Source of the DNA: a virus
Virus record (IMG/VR): IMGVR_UViG_3300033388_007160
Coordinates: 1-64,000 of that record
DNA: 64,000 nucleotides
Direction: 5' to 3' (one strand)
In this document: positions 3,977 through 63,574 of the stretch, piece by piece
Numbering within the stretch: the first letter of the stretch is position 1
Layout: each line of letters begins with the position of its first letter
Program-made: the position numbers and the translations under genes
Notes under the pieces: model-generated
Database searches by the model: none
What the model was told of the DNA's origin: nothing
Seen by the model: only the letters and a program-made list of their open reading frames with translations

Positions 3977-4330
3977 ATGCGGCTTAAGATTTATTTGGCG
4001 CTCGTCATCGGGGCTTTCCTGTGGGCCCTCGGTTCGGTTTGGGCTACAACGGAGAAGGTCTGTGGTGTTTGGGGCGTCATAGCTTATGGCATAGTGGCAG
4101 CAGCATGGCTTGCCATGGTGCTTGTGGCGCTTCACAAGGCAGGCTTGCCTTATCCGGTGGACATGAAATACGTCAATATTGCCTATGCGGTGCTAAGCGT
4201 GCTGACGTTCGGCGTGGCTTTTGTTGTCATACTTTTGACTTATGGTGACACGGCTGCTGTGCTCTGGGCCGGTATGGCCTCAGTAGGCTTGCTTGGCATG
4301 GCATACGAATGGTCGAGGGGGCGAGCATAA
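3977..4330 (+). CDS. Small membrane protein (~4 TM)
   Basis: Four hydrophobic segments; AAGGA upstream. Confidence 0.6.
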   Translation: MRLKIYLALVIGAFLWALGSVWATTEKVCGVWGVIAYGIVAAAWLAMVLVALHKAGLPYPVDMKYVNIAYAVLSVLTFGVAFVVILLTYGDTAAVLWAGMASVGLLGMAYEWSRGRA

Positions 4331-9215: not shown

Positions 9216-9793
9216 TGGTTCCTGAAACCCGCCTTATCGAAATTGCCAATGATATAGTGAAGATAGCCTGTGGCCGGAAGTTCTGGCCTGACAATTGGTC
9301 TTCGGTTACATCGGCCAAGCTGGCCAAGCGAATGATTTCACTGGTCACCAGCTCGTATTCGAATGACCCAGCATCGGCCCATCATCCTGCCCACCCGTCA
9401 TTTGAGCCAATCGCCTTTAGTTGCGATGTGGATAATAAGGCAATTGATGATGAATTGGTTCTTGCCTTCCCGGCACTACATATGGCTCTTACATTCTTTT
9501 GCAGCAATGCAGGACTAAATGATTTGCTAATTGACTTTGCGCCGTATCCGCACTCCGCCTCGACACTTGATGGTTCATCATTCTTCTACATTGATTTTGA
9601 AGATGGGCAGGTTATCAATTATTTTGAGCAGAATGCTATTCCTGACCATGTGCTTAGCCTCTATACGTTGGTGTTGCCTCCGAAGAAGGGCAAGTTCATC
9701 GAGATAATCAGATACTGCTGTAAGTTAACAGGAGATGAGCGCTTGAAAGAGGGCTATGAGCGTATCATCAAGTTCGGCGACATCGGAAGCTGA
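9215..9793 (+). CDS. Hypothetical protein
   Basis: TGATG coupling; GGGAGG SD. Confidence 0.55.
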   Translation: MVPETRLIEIANDIVKIACGRKFWPDNWSSVTSAKLAKRMISLVTSSYSNDPASAHHPAHPSFEPIAFSCDVDNKAIDDELVLAFPALHMALTFFCSNAGLNDLLIDFAPYPHSASTLDGSSFFYIDFEDGQVINYFEQNAIPDHVLSLYTLVLPPKKGKFIEIIRYCCKLTGDERLKEGYERIIKFGDIGS

Positions 9794-10616
9794 CTTGGGG
9801 CCCAAGCTGGTTCGGCTCTTTTCGGGTTGGCTGATAGTTTCTGAGTTTGCCATAGGCCAGGACAGCTATTACTCGCAGACTTTAGCCTATGGCGGCCATG
9901 TGATATATCCCACAACGCGCATAGATTGGGTAGTCTTCAATGAGCAACGGGCCTATGCTGTGCAGGCCAAGCTGAAGTGGAATAAGACACTGATTAGCCA
10001 GGCCGAAGCCGCAAACGAAGTCTTCCCTTTGGTCTATCTGCTGGTTCCCACGCCACCCAGTCGCAGGATAATAGAATCTTATGGCCTTGATACGGAAAGA
10101 AGGCACTTCGGCATCATCGCAGAAGAGGACGGCGACCTATTTATTGTTCGGGAACCGATTTTCCATTTCAAGGGCCGATACAGCGAACATGCCTATTGGA
10201 AGCGAGCCTACCCTCATCTTTATAATGAGCTTTACCGGTGGCTTGCTTGGCAAACAGAGGAATATCCCCTGTGCCGCTACAAATGGTCTTTGCATAATGG
10301 TTACATTTGTCCATTCTTGAGAGCTGATGGGCATTGTGCATGGCAGCATCCGCCTGTCGGAGCGTATGGTGGTTGTGCCCTGCGCAATTATGCCCTTGGC
10401 TACAATCCGCGAGCAGATTTTCTTGAACTTGTCCATTTGTATGAAGAGACTTGTCGCCAGCACGGCAGGCCGGTTATCCTTTATCTCGATGACCAGGCCA
10501 AAGAACGCCTTCGCCAGTACAAGAAACTTTGTGCCTATTTAGAGGCAGCAACGATTTTGCACCGATTCATCTCAAGGAGTGCTAATGCAGATGGCGAAAA
10601 TTCCCGTGAGGCTTAG
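9756..10616 (+). CDS. Putative PD-(D/E)xK-fold nuclease-like protein
   Basis: SEF..RIDWV..AVQAKL pattern; Cys-rich C-terminal part. Confidence 0.45.
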   Translation: MSVSSSSATSEADLGPKLVRLFSGWLIVSEFAIGQDSYYSQTLAYGGHVIYPTTRIDWVVFNEQRAYAVQAKLKWNKTLISQAEAANEVFPLVYLLVPTPPSRRIIESYGLDTERRHFGIIAEEDGDLFIVREPIFHFKGRYSEHAYWKRAYPHLYNELYRWLAWQTEEYPLCRYKWSLHNGYICPFLRADGHCAWQHPPVGAYGGCALRNYALGYNPRADFLELVHLYEETCRQHGRPVILYLDDQAKERLRQYKKLCAYLEAATILHRFISRSANADGENSREA

Positions 10617-11631
10617 GGGGCCCTTCTCCGGCCTTACCGGATATGGCCGTTGCTTCTGTGGCGTTGTCAAGCACCTGCTGAAATCCCGGCGCTTGGCCGT
10701 GGAAGTTTTATCGCTCTACAATAATCCTCAGCCTTCTGCCGACCCCGAACTTGTTGCCCAGAGTGGCATACGATTTGATGTGCGGCATTGGGGATTGCTT
10801 TTTGGTATTCCGCCGTTGTTGCCCTCACTGGGCACGGAGTATCGGGTTATCTATACGATGTATGAGGCCGATGATATCCCTCGGCAATGGCGAACTTATG
10901 TTAAACAAGCCGATGAGATTTGGGTGCCTTCCCAGCACTGTGCCGAGGTATTTGGTGCATACAATCCCAGAATCAGAGTCGTCCATCTTGGTGTCTCAGA
11001 GTTCTTCAGGCCCACACAGCTCGACAAGAGGTATTACCGTCAGAAACTGGGCTTCCATGAAGACTGGCGAGGATACTGGATTGGCACGGCGGGCGTGATG
11101 TCTCATCGCAAAGGTGTTGATGTGCTTGTTCGGGCCTTCAGGGAAGCATTTGGCACGCAAAGCGATGTAAAGTTGCTCATCAAGACAAGAGATACCAAAT
11201 GGCTGCTGCCGATAGACGACCCTCGTGTCATTGTGATAGATGAAGACTGGCCCGAAGAGAAGATGCGTGATTTTTACTGGGCGCTCGACCTGTTTGCCCT
11301 GCCAAGTCGGGGAGAGGGCTTTGGGATGCCACCACTTGAAGCGGCGCGTTGTGGCACACCTGCTTTAGTTACAGCATGGAGTGGAATGCTGGAATACATT
11401 GATAACGATGGCATTTGGGGTATTGAAGTGGCCGGACTGGTGCCTACCAGAGGCATGGCTGCCGACCATGCCTATTATGCGGAACCTGATTTAGCAGATT
11501 TCATTGACAAGCTTCGCTTCTTATACGAAAATAGGCCCGGAGTCGGACGAAGCTATAACTACTGGACGTATCGGGAAGCTGCCAAGCGTTTCGAGAAGGC
11601 GATACTTGAGTCCATCCGGCTCCGGAGATAG
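10591..11631 (+). CDS. Glycosyltransferase, GT4 (GT-B)
   Basis: TGYGR, RKGVDVL, PSRGEGFGMPPLEA. Confidence 0.9.
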   Translation: MAKIPVRLRGPFSGLTGYGRCFCGVVKHLLKSRRLAVEVLSLYNNPQPSADPELVAQSGIRFDVRHWGLLFGIPPLLPSLGTEYRVIYTMYEADDIPRQWRTYVKQADEIWVPSQHCAEVFGAYNPRIRVVHLGVSEFFRPTQLDKRYYRQKLGFHEDWRGYWIGTAGVMSHRKGVDVLVRAFREAFGTQSDVKLLIKTRDTKWLLPIDDPRVIVIDEDWPEEKMRDFYWALDLFALPSRGEGFGMPPLEAARCGTPALVTAWSGMLEYIDNDGIWGIEVAGLVPTRGMAADHAYYAEPDLADFIDKLRFLYENRPGVGRSYNYWTYREAAKRFEKAILESIRLRR

Positions 11632-49087: not shown

Positions 49088-49393
49088 ATGCTATTGCCAA
49101 TCATGGATGAATGGGAAGACTTAACGCCGGAGGAACGCCGCCACATAGGCTGGCAACGCTTCATGAAATGCCCCGACGATGTTTATCTCTGCCCCCGATG
49201 TATGCCGCCTGGTGCAGTTTATCCTGACGACTTTGATTCATACGACGAATGGCTGCCTGACCCGCATTGCAAATTTTGCTTCGGCTTTGGCGTGGTCAGC
49301 GACATCACCGAAATCATTCGCGAGGCTGGGGAAGAAGAGGAAGCCCCTGCCCAGCAACCCGAAGATAACGATGAGGCCGAAGGTTTAGCTTGA
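49088..49393 (+). CDS. Small Cys-containing protein
   Basis: CPRC..CKFCFG. Confidence 0.45.
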   Translation: MLLPIMDEWEDLTPEERRHIGWQRFMKCPDDVYLCPRCMPPGAVYPDDFDSYDEWLPDPHCKFCFGFGVVSDITEIIREAGEEEEAPAQQPEDNDEAEGLA

Positions 49394-49411
49394 CGCGCAA
49401 GTGGGTATAGT
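49382..49411 (+). promoter_or_regulatory. SigB/SigF-type promoter GGTTT-N16-GGGTA (copy 2)
   Basis: AGGTTT-N14-GTGGGTATAGT at a gene boundary. Confidence 0.6.
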
Positions 49412-52768: not shown

Positions 52769-53932
52769 ATGCCGAAGGCGACGATAACGGTTATGCGCGT
52801 GGGGCACAGGGATAGCGACGCGGGCAAGCGGGCGCCAAGCGAGCTGCTGATAGTGACGCCCCAGGGGATAGGGGATGCGCTGATAGCGGCGACTGTGGGG
52901 TATCACTGCGAGGCTGCGGGCATAGCGACGGCGATACGGCGGGAGATACGGGGCGAAGCGGCGGTGCGCGGATGGAGCGTATCGGATTTTGATGTTAGTG
53001 AGCTGGAGTTGTTACCGTTGCTATCGGGGAGCGGGCGTGGTGAGGTGTTTCGGTTGGCGGGGCGCAGGAGCTTTGCGTGGCATGATGCGAGCGGCGGGGC
53101 GATGCTGGATAGGCTGCTCGCGGAGATTGGGTTGGAGCGGCAGGCGGCGCCTGCAACGGCGATGATAGGGGCGGATATCGAGCGGATGGAGATTGGCGGA
53201 GGCCACGGGATAATAGCGCCGTGGAAGCACAGCGCGCCAGAATACAGTATGAGCAAGGAGCAAGTAGCGGCTGCGGCTGCGGAGATGCGGGCGGCAGGCT
53301 TGATACCGGTGGTAGTGCACAGCGAGCGCGTAGACTTGGGTGGAGTAGATGCGGTGAATTGGACGGGGCAAACGCGGACGGTGCGAGAACTGCTACCGTT
53401 GCTCGCTGCGGCGCGGGTTGTTGTGACGGCGGATAATGGCATTTTGCACGCGGCGCAGGCGATGCAGGTGCCGACGGTTGCTGTGGCGAGCAGGCGCACG
53501 ATAGCGCCGGAGGCGTTTAGGGATTACGCGCCGATACTGTGGTGCATGGCGCGGGGCGAAACGCGAGCGGTGCGCGAGCGCACGATAATGCTCGCAGTGC
53601 GAGCGATGCTGAAGGCAAGCGAGGCGAGGTGGTGTATAGCGGGGCCGGAGCGCTATCTGTGTGGTGTGGAGCAGGCGGGGCGGCGGGTAGCGCGGGCGGC
53701 AGGGGTGTTTTACGCGAGGATGGACGCGGACGCGATTGCAGAAGCGGATGCGGTGATCGTCGAATATCATCCGTATTATCACGATGATTGGGCGGCTGTG
53801 TTTGAGGAGCTGCGTGCTCGCGGTTGGCAGGGGGAGATAATTTGGAGCGTGCACAAGGCGGCGGACTTGACGCGCGAGGGGCGGCAGGCGGAGATAGCGG
53901 AATTGGAGGTTGTTGGCGAGCATGGCGGATAA
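52769..53932 (+). CDS. Glycosyltransferase, GT9, with C-terminal extra domain
   Basis: QGIGDAL, NWTGQT, ADNGILHAAQA. Confidence 0.75.
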   Translation: MPKATITVMRVGHRDSDAGKRAPSELLIVTPQGIGDALIAATVGYHCEAAGIATAIRREIRGEAAVRGWSVSDFDVSELELLPLLSGSGRGEVFRLAGRRSFAWHDASGGAMLDRLLAEIGLERQAAPATAMIGADIERMEIGGGHGIIAPWKHSAPEYSMSKEQVAAAAAEMRAAGLIPVVVHSERVDLGGVDAVNWTGQTRTVRELLPLLAAARVVVTADNGILHAAQAMQVPTVAVASRRTIAPEAFRDYAPILWCMARGETRAVRERTIMLAVRAMLKASEARWCIAGPERYLCGVEQAGRRVARAAGVFYARMDADAIAEADAVIVEYHPYYHDDWAAVFEELRARGWQGEIIWSVHKAADLTREGRQAEIAELEVVGEHGG

Positions 53933-54437
53933 GGAACGCGCGCTGGTATTGATGGAGCATTGCGATGATGCGGGCGGAACGCAGGCGCTGCTCACGGGGG
54001 TTGACTACTTTTTGCGAGGGCGATGGAGCGAGCAGGAGCTGCAGCGGGCTTTGCAGCAGGCGGATATATTCGTGTATGCGGATGATGTGGACGAACCCGA
54101 CCAATCGGCTGCGGCGGCGGATGTGTTGGGGTTCGGGCGCCCCGTGGTAGTATCGGGCTGCAGGAAACATGCGGATGTGTTGCCGTGGTGCGTGCAAGCG
54201 AAGGGGGCGCAGGAGATAGCTGAGCGAGTATTGTGGCTGCTGAGCAATGCTGCTGCATACCAGCGGGCGGGGCTACGGGCGCTGCAGGGAGCGAGCTTTC
54301 GGCGGCAACGGGTGCTCGCGCGGCAGTATCGGGCGGCGGTTGTCCATGTTTTGGCGAGGCGATACTTGCGGGATTATCGTGGCGCAGGGGGGAATACTGG
54401 CCCTAAGCGAGCGGTCGAACATGAACGCGATGGATGA
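53922..54437 (+). CDS. GT-B C-terminal half-like protein
   Basis: ADIFVY..QSAAAADVLGFGRPVV. Confidence 0.55.
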   Translation: MADKERALVLMEHCDDAGGTQALLTGVDYFLRGRWSEQELQRALQQADIFVYADDVDEPDQSAAAADVLGFGRPVVVSGCRKHADVLPWCVQAKGAQEIAERVLWLLSNAAAYQRAGLRALQGASFRRQRVLARQYRAAVVHVLARRYLRDYRGAGGNTGPKRAVEHERDG

Positions 54438-56386: not shown

Positions 56387-56974
56387 ATGAAGCTAAGTGA
56401 TTGGGCCAAGCAGCAAGGCATCAGTTATCGCACGGCATGGAGATGGTTTAGGCAAGGACGCTTGCCGTGTAGGGCTGAGCAGATGCCTTCGGGGACCATA
56501 TTGGTCTATCCCGATGAGGAAACACAAACAGATGAAGCTGTAGTGATTTATGCTCGTGTTTCGTCCAGCAACCAGCGTGGAGACTTGCAGCGGCAGGTTG
56601 AACGGCTTGTGACTTACGCCAATGCTCGCGGCTGGAGAATTGCGGATATTGTCACAGAGATAGGTTCGGGCCTCAACGGTCGCCGGAAGAAGCTGTTGAA
56701 GCTGTTGGCCGACCCCAATGTTCGCCATATCCTCGTAGAACACCGAGACCGCTTGGCCCGTTTCGGTGTTGAGTTTATAGAGGCAGCGTTGTCTGCCAGT
56801 GGCCGCAAGCTTACGGTGGTAGATGAAACAGAATTCAAAGACGACTTATGGCAGGACTTTGTGGATTTGGTTACCAGCATGGCGGTCCGCATATATGGCC
56901 GTCGAGGCGCACGAAACCGTGCGCAACGTGCTTTAGAGGCCCTGAGGCACGGCGATGACAATCTTAAGGAGTAG
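56387..56974 (+). CDS. tnpA: IS607 serine transposase
   Basis: N-terminal HTH, YARVSS, DRLARFG. Confidence 0.95.
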   Translation: MKLSDWAKQQGISYRTAWRWFRQGRLPCRAEQMPSGTILVYPDEETQTDEAVVIYARVSSSNQRGDLQRQVERLVTYANARGWRIADIVTEIGSGLNGRRKKLLKLLADPNVRHILVEHRDRLARFGVEFIEAALSASGRKLTVVDETEFKDDLWQDFVDLVTSMAVRIYGRRGARNRAQRALEALRHGDDNLKE

Positions 56975-58049
56975 CAAGCTTAGCTTCAAAGAAGCAACGG
57001 AAGCCAAGCTGGCTATCCTGCAGAAGATAGCTGAAGATTACCGTCGTGCCGTTAACTGGTTCATAGACTGGTATTGGCAACACGGCCTCCGCCGCTTTCC
57101 TGAAACCGAAGTAGTCAATGCCTGTCCTGTGGATTGGTTCACTCATCGCATGAAGAAGGTGGCTGCACAGCAGGCCCTTGGTATAGTCCGCGTTGCCTGC
57201 AAGCGAGGCCGGAAAACAAAGCCTGAATATAAGCAGCTTAAGATACAAGCTCAATGCACCATTGCGCGGTTGCGGCAACCCAAAGAGGCCGAGAGCTTTG
57301 ATTACTGGCTTGAGCTGCGGTGCATAGGCAACAAATTACGCTTGGACTTGCCCCTGAAAGCCAACAAACATTTCAACCGCTTCGTAGCTGAAGGCTGGAA
57401 ACAGCATAGTGGACTGCTTATTGATGTAAAGCGACGCACTGTGACGGTAGTATTCGAGAAGGATGAGAAACCTGCAGATGATACGTCACACCCCGTTGCT
57501 GTAGACATCGGGGCAAGTTCATGTCTATTTGCCTGTGCCGACTTTGCCCACGCTGGCTGTCTTGGTCTGCAGATTGGCGACCTTCTACAAAAGGTTGCGC
57601 GGAAACAACATGGCTCCAAGCGCCAGAAGAAAGCTCGACGCCGGTTGAGGCATTACATTGATGAACAAGTCAAGAACCTGCTCAAAGCTTTTCAACCTAG
57701 CTGCGTCGTGGCCGAAAGATTGCATAACGTGCTGCAGCGAACCAAACAAGACCGTAAGCTAAATAAAGCAGTTCGCTGCCTCCTCGGTGGTTGGTGCTAC
57801 CGTTACGCGCTGGAGCGGTTGCGCATGACATGCGAAGTCAACCGTGTTGGCTTCCATGTCGTGCCGCCGCAGTATACCAGCCAGCGGTGCCCAGCCTGCG
57901 GCCACATCGAGGAGTCGAACCGCCGAGGCAGGATGTTTCGCTGTCGGCAATGTGGGTATATTGACCATGCCGACTTAGTGGCCGCCAGAAACATCCTGTG
58001 GCGGTTCACTGAGGAGATTACCGTCCCTCAGGCGGCGGAAGCCGGTTGA
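56955..58049 (+). CDS. tnpB: TnpB RNA-guided endonuclease
   Basis: VDIG, AERL, TSQRCPACG, CRQCG, ADLVAARNI. Confidence 0.92.
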   Translation: MTILRSSKLSFKEATEAKLAILQKIAEDYRRAVNWFIDWYWQHGLRRFPETEVVNACPVDWFTHRMKKVAAQQALGIVRVACKRGRKTKPEYKQLKIQAQCTIARLRQPKEAESFDYWLELRCIGNKLRLDLPLKANKHFNRFVAEGWKQHSGLLIDVKRRTVTVVFEKDEKPADDTSHPVAVDIGASSCLFACADFAHAGCLGLQIGDLLQKVARKQHGSKRQKKARRRLRHYIDEQVKNLLKAFQPSCVVAERLHNVLQRTKQDRKLNKAVRCLLGGWCYRYALERLRMTCEVNRVGFHVVPPQYTSQRCPACGHIEESNRRGRMFRCRQCGYIDHADLVAARNILWRFTEEITVPQAAEAG

Positions 58050-60641: not shown

Positions 60642-60949
60642 AATGCGCCGTTTTAGGTTGTGAAGAAGAAGCCGGAATCTGGCTTGTTACATCTAACGAG
60701 CAGGTAACCCGGCTGTGCCGGAAGCATTTCGAGGAATACTGGCAGGCCGGAGGGGAGTTGCATGGTGTAGAATACAAAGTCCGGCAGGGTGGCCGGAGCG
60801 AATCTATGGGCTGGTCACATCGCACAGGCACCATCCAAAGCAAATTTGTCAACGAACAACGCCGGTGGTTGCAATGGCTCGAAGAAAACCAGCCTACGAG
60901 GTCATCAAAGAATTCGGGGAAGCCTGGCTTGTGAGAAGATTGGGGGCTG

Positions 60950-61588
60950 ATGGACGGCCCTCAAAGCAGCGGCCATTCTGGGCATGTGGCCGCTGCTTTG
61001 ATTTGTATCAGGGAGGAGGCATTATCCTCGATGCCGGATATTGCTCAAACTGCGGCTTCCGACCGGCTCCGGACACTGAAGCAGAGGATACTGAACTGGG
61101 CGAATGAAATTGTTGACCCCCAGCTTAAAGATTTCGTATTCCATTGTCTGCGCCATGCCCCTCCGGCCTTCTGGGAAATGCCCGCTTCCGCTACCGGCAG
61201 GCACCATCCGTCCGACGAAAGAGGCCCCGGTGGCCTGCTGATACACATCCTTCGCCTTCTCAGTGTGACAGATGACGCCATGCAATGGCTGAAGGCTGCC
61301 GGATATTCCGAACGCAAATGGCGGGATTGGTGGATAGCAACCTCGATTCTTCACGACTTGCTCAGGGCCACGGAAAGATACAAGAAGCGCCACGGCCCGG
61401 AAATGGCAAAACGCATAGAAGCACGCCTCGACAGCCGTTACAGGCAACTTGCCGATGCCATCCGTAGGCATGAAGGTCCCTGGTCTGATGGCGGCCCCTC
61501 TACACGCAACTGGTTTGGCCTTCTCTTCCATATGGCAGACTTCTGGTTAACGCGAGAAAAGGTAAAGACCGACATCGAGGAAAAATAA
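60950..61588 (+). CDS. HD-domain hydrolase
   Basis: ASATG.HH..GGLL.H, LHD, H.G.W, HMAD. Start may be 61031. Confidence 0.8.
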   Translation: MDGPQSSGHSGHVAAALICIREEALSSMPDIAQTAASDRLRTLKQRILNWANEIVDPQLKDFVFHCLRHAPPAFWEMPASATGRHHPSDERGPGGLLIHILRLLSVTDDAMQWLKAAGYSERKWRDWWIATSILHDLLRATERYKKRHGPEMAKRIEARLDSRYRQLADAIRRHEGPWSDGGPSTRNWFGLLFHMADFWLTREKVKTDIEEK

Positions 61589-61613
61589 AAGCCCCACCCT
61601 TCGGGTGGGGCTT
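61581..61613 (-). terminator. Intrinsic terminator (minus strand)
   Basis: AAGCCCCACC-CGAAG-GGTGGGGC followed by TTTTATTTTT on -. Confidence 0.85.
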
Positions 61614-62010
61614 GAGCTTGAGAGGATGCCGCCTCGGTGCCTGTCCTCCGCGTTAGCCAGGCCTCGCTCGGGCTTTGACCGACGCCATCCTCCAGACGAG
61701 GTTGGGATGGGCTGCGATAACGCAGCCCCGGTGGACTCGCTAACGCGAGTGACCACCGAAATATTCCAGCGGGCAGGCCTATGACGCGAGACGGGAAGGG
61801 GGCAGGCATAAAGCCTGTGCGAGGGGACACACGCGGGCGGCGGTGCCTGCTGCCACTAGTATATTGACTGGCTAGCGATCGGGCGCTTGGCCACGCGTCT
61901 CACGGATTGGCCGAGCATCGCCCAAGAAGCTATTGAAGCTGGGCTTTAACTCCCTTTGCATTTGTCGCCAAAGGCCTGCCCGCCTTTACTCGCTGTCAGA
62001 GTTCGCACGA
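61581..62010 (-). ncRNA. Candidate large structured ncRNA (family not recognised)
   Basis: No credible ORF; many stems and long-range pairings; bracketed by a promoter motif and a terminator. Confidence 0.6.
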
Positions 62011-62012
62011 AC

Positions 62013-62043
62013 AGTATACCCACAATGCTACTCATTCAAACCT
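62013..62043 (-). promoter_or_regulatory. SigB/SigF-type promoter GGTTT-N16-GGGTA (copy 3)
   Basis: AGGTTT-N14-GTGGGTATACT on -. Confidence 0.6.
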
Positions 62044-63574
62044 GTCGCATTGATACTTGCTGGCCCAAGGCTGTATACGTGCGCCATCTTTCTTCGCTGT
62101 GCTTTTCAAGGACGCCATCGTCCTCGTCCCAGAAATCTATAACTTGGGCAAAGGGCTTGCCGGGGGCTATGCGAAGGCTTCGGCCAAGGCGTTGCTGTTG
62201 ACGGCCATGAGCCTTGCCCCCAGCGGCCATAATCAGCACGTCAATCGTCGGCACGTTGAACCCCAAGTCCACCACTGGCGTGCCAATCAGGATTTTGTTG
62301 GTGGCAATGAATTCGTCTTTGATTTCTTGGGCCTTCTGGGCGGACATGCCGCCGTGCAAGAAGAGACAATTTTCACGTCCCAGATATTCATCCATCAGCA
62401 GGTTGGCATGTTCTTCCCAATTGACGATGATAAGCACCTTCCGGCCTTTGCTTTGGTGGTAGAGGGCTTCGGTTGCAATGTGGAGGTTTCTTTCTGTGTT
62501 GTAGGCGATGCCATACCGATACTTCTCAGCCCAAGAACCTGCTACGGGCAGGCACCGGACTGGTATGAATTCCACACGGGCTTCGGATAAATAACCTTCG
62601 TCCTGGAGTTCACGTGTGGGCTTTCGGGCCAGGATAGGGCCGGTTACAGCATGTAGCTTCATCGTTTCCCCATAGCCTTCTTCGCGGCTGGCCGTGGCCG
62701 TTTGGCCGAATCGATAGTAAGCGTCTACAGTCATCAGGTAATCAAACCACGTATCGGCAGCGGATTTGTGATGTTCGTCCACGATAATCAAGTCCACTTC
62801 GCGGGCCAGTTTGCCTCCACGTGCAGGGTCTCTGGCCCATCCTTCGTCAAAGATGGCAAGTGTTACCCAGTCTGGCTCGAATTTGCCTTTCGCGATAATG
62901 CCCAGTGGCACGTCGGGGCAGTATTCGGGCCAGCGGGATTTGAATTCATTGAAAATCGGTGTTGTGGGAACGATTATCAGGGTTCGCAGCCCCAAACGAG
63001 CAATAATCTCGATGGCAATTTCCGTCTTGCCGCCGCCTGTTGCCACTTCAATAATGCCCCGCTCAGCTTCAATGGCAGCCTGCACGATTTCTTCTTGGTA
63101 ATCGCGTAGCCTGATAGTCGTCCGCCAGGGGCGAGCTTCGCCAGGTTTGCGTCTTTCATCTACGATTTCAGCGCCTTGGGTAAGATGGGAGATATAAAAG
63201 AGCAGCCCTGTGGGCACAGCCTTCCGCCGCCGGTCGAGAAAATGTATCCGGTGATCCCACTGGCAACGCCAGCAGTCTGGAAACAGGCTGGCCGCTTCTT
63301 CATGGCTGAATTTCTTGCGTCGTTTGACTTTCTGAATGAGCCTCTGGCATTGCCGTCGCAACCACCGAACGCTATCATAGCGGGCTTCAAGGCCGGGCCG
63401 TCCGGCCAGTCGGGCTTCTTCATCCATTAGTTCTTGCAAATGCTTCTCAAGGTGCCGTGCCAGAATCCACTTCGCATTAGGAATTTCAAAAGACAGACAT
63501 TCATCAATGGCTCTGAGTTCTTCGTCAGTGGCTTCCTCAATTTGCGTCCAAGTGTTGGATATCCTCAGCCTCAA
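62036..63574 (-). CDS. Superfamily 2 helicase (UvsW/Rad25-like)
   Basis: LRDYQ, ATGGGKT, DEHH, TAT, QRLGRSLR. Confidence 0.9.
   Translation of the reverse strand: MRLRISNTWTQIEEATDEELRAIDECLSFEIPNAKWILARHLEKHLQELMDEEARLAGRPGLEARYDSVRWLRRQCQRLIQKVKRRKKFSHEEAASLFPDCWRCQWDHRIHFLDRRRKAVPTGLLFYISHLTQGAEIVDERRKPGEARPWRTTIRLRDYQEEIVQAAIEAERGIIEVATGGGKTEIAIEIIARLGLRTLIIVPTTPIFNEFKSRWPEYCPDVPLGIIAKGKFEPDWVTLAIFDEGWARDPARGGKLAREVDLIIVDEHHKSAADTWFDYLMTVDAYYRFGQTATASREEGYGETMKLHAVTGPILARKPTRELQDEGYLSEARVEFIPVRCLPVAGSWAEKYRYGIAYNTERNLHIATEALYHQSKGRKVLIIVNWEEHANLLMDEYLGRENCLFLHGGMSAQKAQEIKDEFIATNKILIGTPVVDLGFNVPTIDVLIMAAGGKAHGRQQQRLGRSLRIAPGKPFAQVIDFWDEDDGVLEKHSEERWRTYTALGQQVSMRQV

Follow-up and report, generated by a model that had tools for sequence, protein, structure and literature searches.

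A candidate structured non-coding RNA of about 425 nt at the meeting point of convergent gene blocks in an uncultivated marine phage

The largest stretch without open reading frames (ORFs) in the analyzed part of an uncultivated marine phage genome (61589-62035, 447 nt) is read here, with somewhat better than even confidence, as the gene of a stand-alone structured non-coding RNA (ncRNA) of about 425 nt, predicted to be transcribed from the minus strand between its own promoter and its own terminator. The gap is GC-enriched and significantly foldable, with a promoter at one end and a terminator at the other. As judged from its sequence, the predicted RNA would be an orphan without a known family, and its kind is plausibly that of the large phage-borne structured RNAs of unknown function. 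Because all observations come from a single locus, the evidence is moderate. The source is an IMG/VR record of 86,019 bp with 114-bp terminal repeats, a completeness estimate of 100%, and a genome GC content of 53.1%. Coordinates are those of the record; the window, meaning the whole stretch of 64,000 nt that was analyzed, comprises its bases 1 to 64000. The features on which the argument draws are the following.

60950-61588, plus strand: left neighboring gene, encoding a 212-aa protein of PHROG 5889, a family that assigns no function
62036-63574, minus strand: right neighboring gene, encoding a DNA helicase of the SF2 type (PHROG 16) that carries ResIII and Helicase_C domains
62013-62042, minus strand: putative promoter, with the -35 element GTTTGA at 62041-62036 and the -10 block GTGGGTATACT at 62023-62013
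61985-62006, minus strand: predicted 5' leader, weakly paired with 61697-61700 in the minimum free energy (MFE) fold of 62006-61582; its start is deduced from the promoter position
61768-61984, minus strand: predicted 5' domain (about 217 nt), in which a multi-branch interior lies within a closing helix of 13 bp (61972-61984 with 61768-61780)
61849-61972, minus strand: variable segment within the 5' domain, containing the predicted hairpin 61885-61916 (9 bp)
61709-61758, minus strand: predicted twin hairpins, 61729-61758 (12 bp, interrupted by a 2-nt bulge) and 61709-61728 (8 bp)
61622-61692, minus strand: predicted 3' domain, whose closing helix of 7 bp pairs 61686-61692 with 61622-61628
61581-61613, minus strand: predicted intrinsic terminator, a GC-rich hairpin of 11 bp (61613-61589) with UUAUUUUU behind it at 61588-61581

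The gap is the meeting point of two convergent gene blocks, with plus-strand genes up to 61588 and minus-strand genes from 62036. Cumulative GC skew peaks at this position, and the skew is about 0 across 61001-63000. An earlier note, made from the letters of the window, had singled out this region as the largest gap in a tightly packed genome, and it is indeed the longest ORF-free stretch in the window. The same note had placed the gap between an SF2 helicase and an HD hydrolase. The helicase was borne out by its ResIII and Helicase_C domains and by PHROG 16, whereas the HD domain of the 212-aa protein reached only 17.4 bits in Pfam against a cut-off of 22. A search of 5.8 billion proteins with the 212-aa protein returned nothing other than itself. 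One tRNA and at least one tag-less tmRNA were confirmed in the phage genome; in the window, ARAGORN detected neither a tRNA nor a tmRNA. A tnpB gene belonging to an IS607-like element ends at 58049, and a TnpB omega RNA was discounted as a candidate for the gap in view of the 3.5 kb and four ORFs that lie between them. A search for a close relative of the phage TnpB, as a clue to the host, did not find one.

The gap is non-coding. Its GC content is 0.613 versus 0.531 for the genome, which places it at the top among all genome gaps of at least 120 nt. Period-3 power amounted to 0.6 compared to a genome median of 3.4 and fell within the lowest 2% of 444-nt windows, each of the six frames is interrupted by 2 to 6 stop codons, and a Pfam and PHROG search of the ORFs touching the gap yielded no family match. 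No combination of a Shine-Dalgarno sequence and a start codon was present on the minus strand of the gap. Such candidates were found on the plus strand only, with lengths of 13 and 25 codons, and the 25-codon candidate is broken by a natural 1-nt deletion. Single-base indels in natural variants were located at 61716 and after 61813. An ORF of 130 aa on the minus strand would require read-through of the terminator into the antisense of the neighboring gene. A small ORF or protein-coding gene was rejected on the basis of the missing periodicity, the stop codons in every frame, the lack of Pfam and PHROG matches, and the missing minus-strand ribosome-binding site and start.

The promoter at the gap is one member of a promoter family of the phage. 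The sequence GTGGGTATA occurs 3 times in the window versus 0.2 times expected, and the combination GTTT-N15/16-GTGGGTATA occurs four times in the genome. Copies were verified at 49382 (+), 57934 (+), 62042 (-), 67851 (-), 68285 (-), 71429 (-), 73529 (+), 74556 (-), and 76471 (-), and weaker copies were noted at 4066 (+) and 7537 (+), giving a family of about ten members with the consensus [G/T]GTTTAG, 13 to 14 nt, and then (G)TGGTATACT. A two-block weight matrix was trained on the eight other strong sites, with the gap site held out, and both strands were scanned. The held-out gap site scored 23.4 bits, ranked 6 of about 172,000 positions, and fell within the range of the training sites. In 30 composition-preserving shuffles of the genome, a score of at least 23 bits was never obtained, and a score of at least 20 bits was obtained 0.07 times per genome. 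Nine sister sites are positioned at gene boundaries and directed into genes or RNAs, most of them with a ribosome-binding site and a start codon downstream. Judged from this placement, the family is the ordinary promoter of the phage, predicted to drive ordinary mRNAs elsewhere in the genome.

The earlier note had already proposed a promoter upstream of the gap on the minus strand and had called it SigB-type. While the score and rank of the site uphold the promoter, and the sequence evidence for it is now much stronger than in that note, the SigB-type label reflects resemblance only: the motif reads equally well as a putative sigma-70-like extended -10 (TGnTATACT) with an unusual -35, GTTTAG. 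No sigma-factor gene was detected in the phage, and a phage-encoded sigma factor behind the promoter was rejected on this account. The -35 element at the gap overlaps the stop codon of the helicase gene, and the start of transcription is predicted at about 62006 (+/-3). As the earlier note had also reported, a U-tract terminator lies downstream on the minus strand, formed by the hairpin 61613-61589 and the UUAUUUUU tract behind it, which overlaps the last codons and the stop of the plus-strand gene. It was the only terminator-like site in a scan of 61300-62300, and on the plus strand no U-tract follows the hairpin 61589-61613. From the promoter and the terminator on the minus strand, we infer an RNA of about 425 nt that would extend from about 62006 to about 61582. 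The sequence thus holds what is generally looked for in an RNA gene, its own promoter and an intrinsic terminator on the same strand. It should be noted that there is no terminator between the helicase gene and the gap, so messages of the helicase operon would also carry the gap sequence as their 3' tail.

The gap folds far better than expected from its composition. Compared to dinucleotide shuffles, the fold z-score of the whole gap was -5.87 for the plus strand and -5.52 for the minus strand, and it remained at -4.55 and -4.14, respectively, when the terminator hairpin was left out. Among 400-nt windows across the genome ranked by GC-regressed fold energy, the gap took place 3 of 428 on the plus strand and 12 of 428 on the minus strand. 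The long-range stem described earlier (61769-61780 with 61972-61983) is a perfect 12-bp helix, extends to 13 bp on the minus strand, and continues with imperfections to 32 nt at 75%; only 0.7% of dinucleotide shuffles contained a perfect stem of at least 12 bp. The predicted pair probability of the 13-bp closing helix was 0.97 to 0.98 for the minus and 0.96 for the plus strand, and the helix is extended inward by pairing of 61966-61970 with 61782-61786 and of 61952-61956 with 61796-61800. All three hairpins listed in the earlier note (61709-61728, 61729-61758, and 61886-61915) were recovered, the third with slightly wider limits of about 61885-61916. The twin hairpins, whose tips are alike, showed pair probabilities of 0.98 to 1.0 on both strands, and the helix closing the 3' domain showed 0.81 for the minus and 0.73 for the plus strand. 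The helices predicted with high confidence are all pure Watson-Crick and form equally on either strand.

The multi-pseudoknot architecture that the earlier note had attributed to the RNA fared less well. Both complements exist, a 9-nt match of 61649-61657 with 61739-61747 and a 9-nt match with one mismatch of 61785-61793 with 61896-61904. Perfect complements of at least 9 nt, however, are expected 0.37 times per shuffle, and complements of 9 nt with one mismatch are expected, by estimate, about 2 times per 190-nt domain. Because such short complements occur at chance frequency, the pseudoknots are not supported. The partner at 61649-61657 would also compete with base pairs at the top of the hairpin and not merely occupy its 4-nt loop. 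The segment with the 61886 hairpin is replaced in a marine variant described below, so its pseudoknot partner is not kept as sequence there.

Relatives of the element were sought in several collections. At gathering thresholds, Rfam 15 gave no match in the window or in L001, and at E values up to 10 it returned noise and weak matches at the terminator hairpin (at most 20 bits, compared to cut-offs of at least 37). The earlier note had found no resemblance to tmRNA, RNase P, SRP, 6S, or intron motifs, in agreement with the Rfam cmscan check, in which tmRNA, RNase P, SRP, 6S, and group I and II introns had no gathering-level match. The families GOLLD, ROOL, OLE, HEARO, and raiA were set aside for the same reason. 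No DNA similarity to the gap was found by blastn in phage GenBank (50,697 phage records), and a search of IMG/VR with both flanking proteins revealed no close relatives. Loci collected with a helicase profile from IMG/VR, JGI metagenomes, and GTDB genomes included none with a comparable gap or similarity; the best helicase homologues were 44 to 48% identical and had other genes directly downstream, with no large gap. The nearest related phage (G001) is represented by a fragment of 43.8 kb, which has about 18 proteins in common with the present phage (25 to 51% identity) and a rearranged gene order. It was the only relative returned by a structural-protein profile search, its helicase is 48% identical, and it contained neither a comparable gap nor a match to the gap by DNA or covariance model. 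The whole record of a further relative (G002) likewise gave no match to the gap by either method.

Two single-sequence covariance models (R1 and R2) produced only self-matches in 560 kb of relatives and no match in the rest of the phage genome. The mini-tmRNA-tip pattern led to one provirus (G003), which neither model matched. A 20-mer from the clamp region had no match in IMG/VR and two in GTDB (Phaeobacter and a Phycisphaerae metagenome-assembled genome), which extend for only 23 to 25 nt, with about one expected by chance. No other copies of the element were found in the phage, its relatives, or GTDB genomes. Paralogy with a region at 71.4 kb was considered and rejected, the match being 19 nt long with an E value of 0.34 and consisting of a purine run resembling a ribosome-binding site. 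Since no homologue was found, there is no covariation support for any helix. No RNA sequencing run containing the gap sequence was present among the matches listed, and the matching contigs derive from DNA only.

Natural variants of the gap were recovered as Logan contigs, of which only two, both short, match it. One, of 215 nt, stems from a hydrothermal-vent run (X1) and matches 61657-61849 with one substitution and one deletion before it diverges. The other, of 177 nt, stems from a marine run (X2) and consists of 61761-61848 (2 substitutions in 88 positions and 1 insertion) and 61973-62012 (4 differences), with 48 unrelated letters in place of the 124 nt at 61849-61972 (joint 61848/61973). 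Both contigs break at a common point, 61848/61849. The arms of the clamp are retained and its interior is swapped. In coding contigs of the marine run beside the gap, 9 of 151 and 9 of 175 bases differ (5 to 6%), and four of the five listed changes in the contig covering 61178-61352 fall on third codon positions of the gene for the 212-aa protein. If third positions are near-neutral, the per-site divergence is about 15%, and 88 neutral bases should hold about 13 changes, compared to the 2 to 3 seen. This suggests sequence-level constraint on the core, although low contig depth (2.5 to 3.3) and small numbers weaken the argument, which is also biased because the contigs were retrieved through shared 31-mers.

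The minus strand is the more likely strand of the RNA, as indicated by the promoter and the terminator; thermodynamics slightly favors the plus strand. G-U pairs do not separate the two, in line with the earlier description of this evidence as mixed: the extended stem holds 2 on each strand, and one natural variant speaks for each. A T>C change at 61691 in the hydrothermal-vent contig keeps a pair of the closing helix of the 3' domain as G-U on the minus strand only, and a C>T change at 61803 in the marine contig keeps a pair as G-U on the plus strand only. A functional RNA of the plus strand, arising when transcription of the plus-strand gene block continues past the hairpin 61589-61613 that lacks a U-tract, is in our judgment distinctly improbable. 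This strand does fold better, at -191.3 versus -179.8 kcal/mol for 61614-62010 (a difference of about 12) and with a GC-corrected rank of 3 versus 12, the change at 61803 points its way, and a weak match to the promoter family is found at 61512 (+). However, shuffled genomes reach the 15.6 bits of this match about 0.8 times each, plus and minus strands hardly differ in z-score, the change at 61691 favors the minus strand, and a plus-strand transcript would meet no terminator before running antisense into the helicase gene. The gap may instead be a structured 3' untranslated tail and insulator where the plus and minus blocks converge, a reading that we hold unlikely although it fits the position of the gap exactly at the strand switch and cumulative GC-skew maximum, the missing terminator behind the helicase gene, and the hairpin without a U-tract behind the plus-strand gene, which makes read-through from the left likely. 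Hairpins and terminator would then stop read-through and shield the helicase message from 3' exonucleases, and the internal promoter would add convergent transcription only. A single terminator hairpin normally suffices for this purpose, though, and for a compact phage about 400 nt of additional conserved, GC-rich sequence is a considerable cost. That a dedicated promoter of full strength stands in front of an untranslated tract suggests that the transcript itself is wanted, and the core is conserved in a variant whose neighboring genes have diverged by 5 to 6%.

Because the strong helices are strand-symmetric Watson-Crick, an element that acts as DNA also fits them, i.e., a replication site by the helicase gene, a junction for recombination or module exchange, or the remnant of a small inverted-repeat mobile element with the 12-bp repeats as its ends. 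Perfect inverted repeats work on both strands, these repeats flank the interior that is swapped in the variants at the shared breakpoint, and the helicase gene adjoins; even so, we rate such an element as quite improbable. With 61% GC and neither iterons nor an AT-rich tract for unwinding, the gap is unlike known origins, and an iteron or AT-rich replication origin was excluded, the direct repeats in the gap being two-copy only and no longer than 14 nt. The element is single copy in the phage, its relatives, and GTDB, where the two 20-mer matches are attributable to chance. The bases flanking the repeats show no target-site duplication, no integrase or reverse transcriptase was seen near the gap, and the exact bracketing from promoter to terminator would be left unexplained. 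A retron msr-msd ncRNA was also considered, as inverted repeats are present, and was rejected because there is no RVT_1 match in the whole phage. Least credible to us is a decayed gene or neutral spacer that is GC-rich and foldable by accident. The locus is known only once and is missing in the nearest relative, and the Shine-Dalgarno-like GGGAAGGGGG on the plus strand resembles ribosome-binding sites elsewhere in the phage. That match is nevertheless at chance level, with an E value of 0.34 for the 4 kb compared, and neither residual codon periodicity nor protein similarity is left. GC content above the genome level, a fold z-score of -4 or lower, a core conserved in the variants, and an intact, full-strength promoter all argue against decay.

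The predicted stand-alone ncRNA was compared to known systems. GOLLD and ROOL are large ornate ncRNAs, frequently encoded by phages and prophages, with lengths of about 800 and 580 nt, respectively. Similarly to GOLLD (RF01998) and ROOL (RF03087), the gap would encode a phage-borne, GC-enriched, multi-domain ncRNA of several hundred nucleotides and of unknown function, with tRNA and tmRNA-like genes elsewhere in the same genome. In contrast to both, it has no Rfam match at E values up to 10, is shorter, and does not lie beside a tRNA gene; it also has neither a family nor covariation support. GOLLD, ROOL, and OLE are large ornate RNAs that form homo-oligomers (PMC12286853).

A different parallel is offered by the position of the promoter, which overlaps the end of the upstream ORF, as in type I 3'-UTR-derived small RNAs. 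These RNAs, such as MicL and DapZ, have an internal promoter and are Hfq-dependent antisense regulators of 80 to 300 nt with seed regions. The gap RNA would share with them a terminator common to mRNA and RNA and a predicted double existence, once as the 3' tail of the mRNA and once as a transcript of its own. Unlike them, it would be about 425 nt long and highly structured, and it has no detectable complementarity to phage targets. ColE1 RNA II and the T4 origin transcripts are structured primer RNAs at replication origins. They resemble the predicted RNA in having a dedicated promoter, in being long, structured, and untranslated, and in their location next to replication genes, here including the SF2 helicase. 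They differ in that the gap has no GC skew favoring R-loops and no AT-rich unwinding element, its RNA would end at a strong terminator, and nothing marks an origin.

Under the favored reading, transcription of the stand-alone ncRNA would begin at about 62006, driven by the member of the phage promoter family that overlaps the helicase stop codon, and it would end at the intrinsic terminator formed by 61613-61589 and the U-tract. From 5' to 3', the RNA would consist of the 5' domain of about 217 nt with its 13-bp clamp and swappable segment, the tandem hairpins, the smaller 3' domain, and the terminator. Complementarity of the RNA to the rest of the phage genome was at chance level only, and an antisense regulator of phage genes was rejected on this ground. 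It is rather the fold of the RNA that may matter during infection, with the RNA binding proteins as a scaffold or decoy; roles as a ribozyme, scaffold, or decoy are speculation.

At present, the locus is of value as a well-delimited candidate with promoter and terminator mapped from sequence. A by-product is the promoter family, by which transcription units are annotated throughout the phage genome. Phage-borne large structured RNAs, GOLLD and ROOL among them, belong to the RNA classes that are least understood, and each new one is a candidate for a new RNA architecture or a new phage-host interaction. It is a long shot, yet conceivable, that the gap RNA is the first example of a hitherto undescribed class of large, modular RNAs of phages, in which the 13-bp clamp would hold an exchangeable domain (124 nt here and 48 nt in the marine variant). 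Expressed from an ordinary phage promoter, such an RNA might, together with the tag-less tmRNA and the tRNA, capture or redirect a host RNA-surveillance or defense protein, with the swappable domain setting target specificity. The phage already has an unusual set of RNA tools in its tRNA and at least one tag-less tmRNA, and a 425-nt RNA with a naturally exchangeable domain would make it a good model of RNA-based host takeover.

A promoter family with the motif [G/T]GTTTAG-N13/14-(G)TGGTATACT was found to recur phage-wide. Its members are placed at gene boundaries and directed into the gene or RNA downstream. L125 denotes the remainder of the virus record beyond the window (record coordinate = L125 coordinate + 64000).

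Matches to the promoter family
window 49382-49411, plus strand, family promoter
window 57934-57962, plus strand, full-strength family promoter
window 62042-62013, minus strand, family promoter
L125 about 3851-3822, minus strand, family promoter
L125 about 4285-4256, minus strand, family promoter
L125 about 7429-7400, minus strand, family promoter
L125 about 9529-9558, plus strand, family promoter
L125 about 10556-10526, minus strand, family promoter
L125 about 12471-12442, minus strand, family promoter
window 4066 (plus), 7537 (plus) and 37969 (minus), weaker matches

In appearance the motif is closer to an extended -10 promoter of the sigma-70 type, with a -35 element that is unusual, than to a stress-sigma promoter. 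A gene for a sigma factor was not detected in the phage genome.

An IS607-like pair of overlapping genes occupies window 56387-58049.

Genes of the IS607-like pair
56387-56974, TnpA serine recombinase (Resolvase domain; PHROG transposase)
56955-58049, TnpB, 364 aa (Cas12f1-like TNB domain)

The 3' end of tnpB contains the full-strength promoter, at the position where the start site for an omega RNA would be expected.

Beyond the window, two small RNA genes were confirmed using Rfam and ARAGORN.

RNA genes in L125
12863-12943, plus strand, short tmRNA-like gene, 81 nt, tRNA-like domain only (51.1 bits)
10557-10631, minus strand, tRNA-Glu(UUC)

A candidate second mini-tmRNA, at about 68294-68375 (minus strand) of the record, scored below the Rfam gathering score. 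The strongest GC-corrected folding in the genome was located at record positions 71400-73200 (L125 7400-9200), where the plus strand at 71601-72000 has a residual z of -4.7 and several neighboring windows give values of -2.6 or lower on both strands. Separately, window 53001-54000 is a local composition outlier (GC, 0.64; GC skew, +0.365) within a 387-aa ORF (52769-53932), whose product could be glycine-rich or repetitive.

To the left of the ORF-free gap, the marine variant contig across window 60932-61082 has four listed differences, at 60978, 60984, 60999 and 61041. Each of them is a third codon position in the plus-strand ORF 60715-61107, and none is one in the frame 60950-61588. The latter, right-hand protein is 185 aa long in its database version, which would put its start at 61031. 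Gene boundaries in this stretch will probably have to be revised.

Within the 5' domain of the candidate RNA, A-G-[C/G]-GGGCAGGC-[C/A]-TA occurs as two direct copies (61768-61781 and 61797-61810; spacing, 29 nt). Since the 3' arm at 61972-61983 can pair with either copy (12 bp or 8 bp), an alternative-pairing switch inside this domain is possible.
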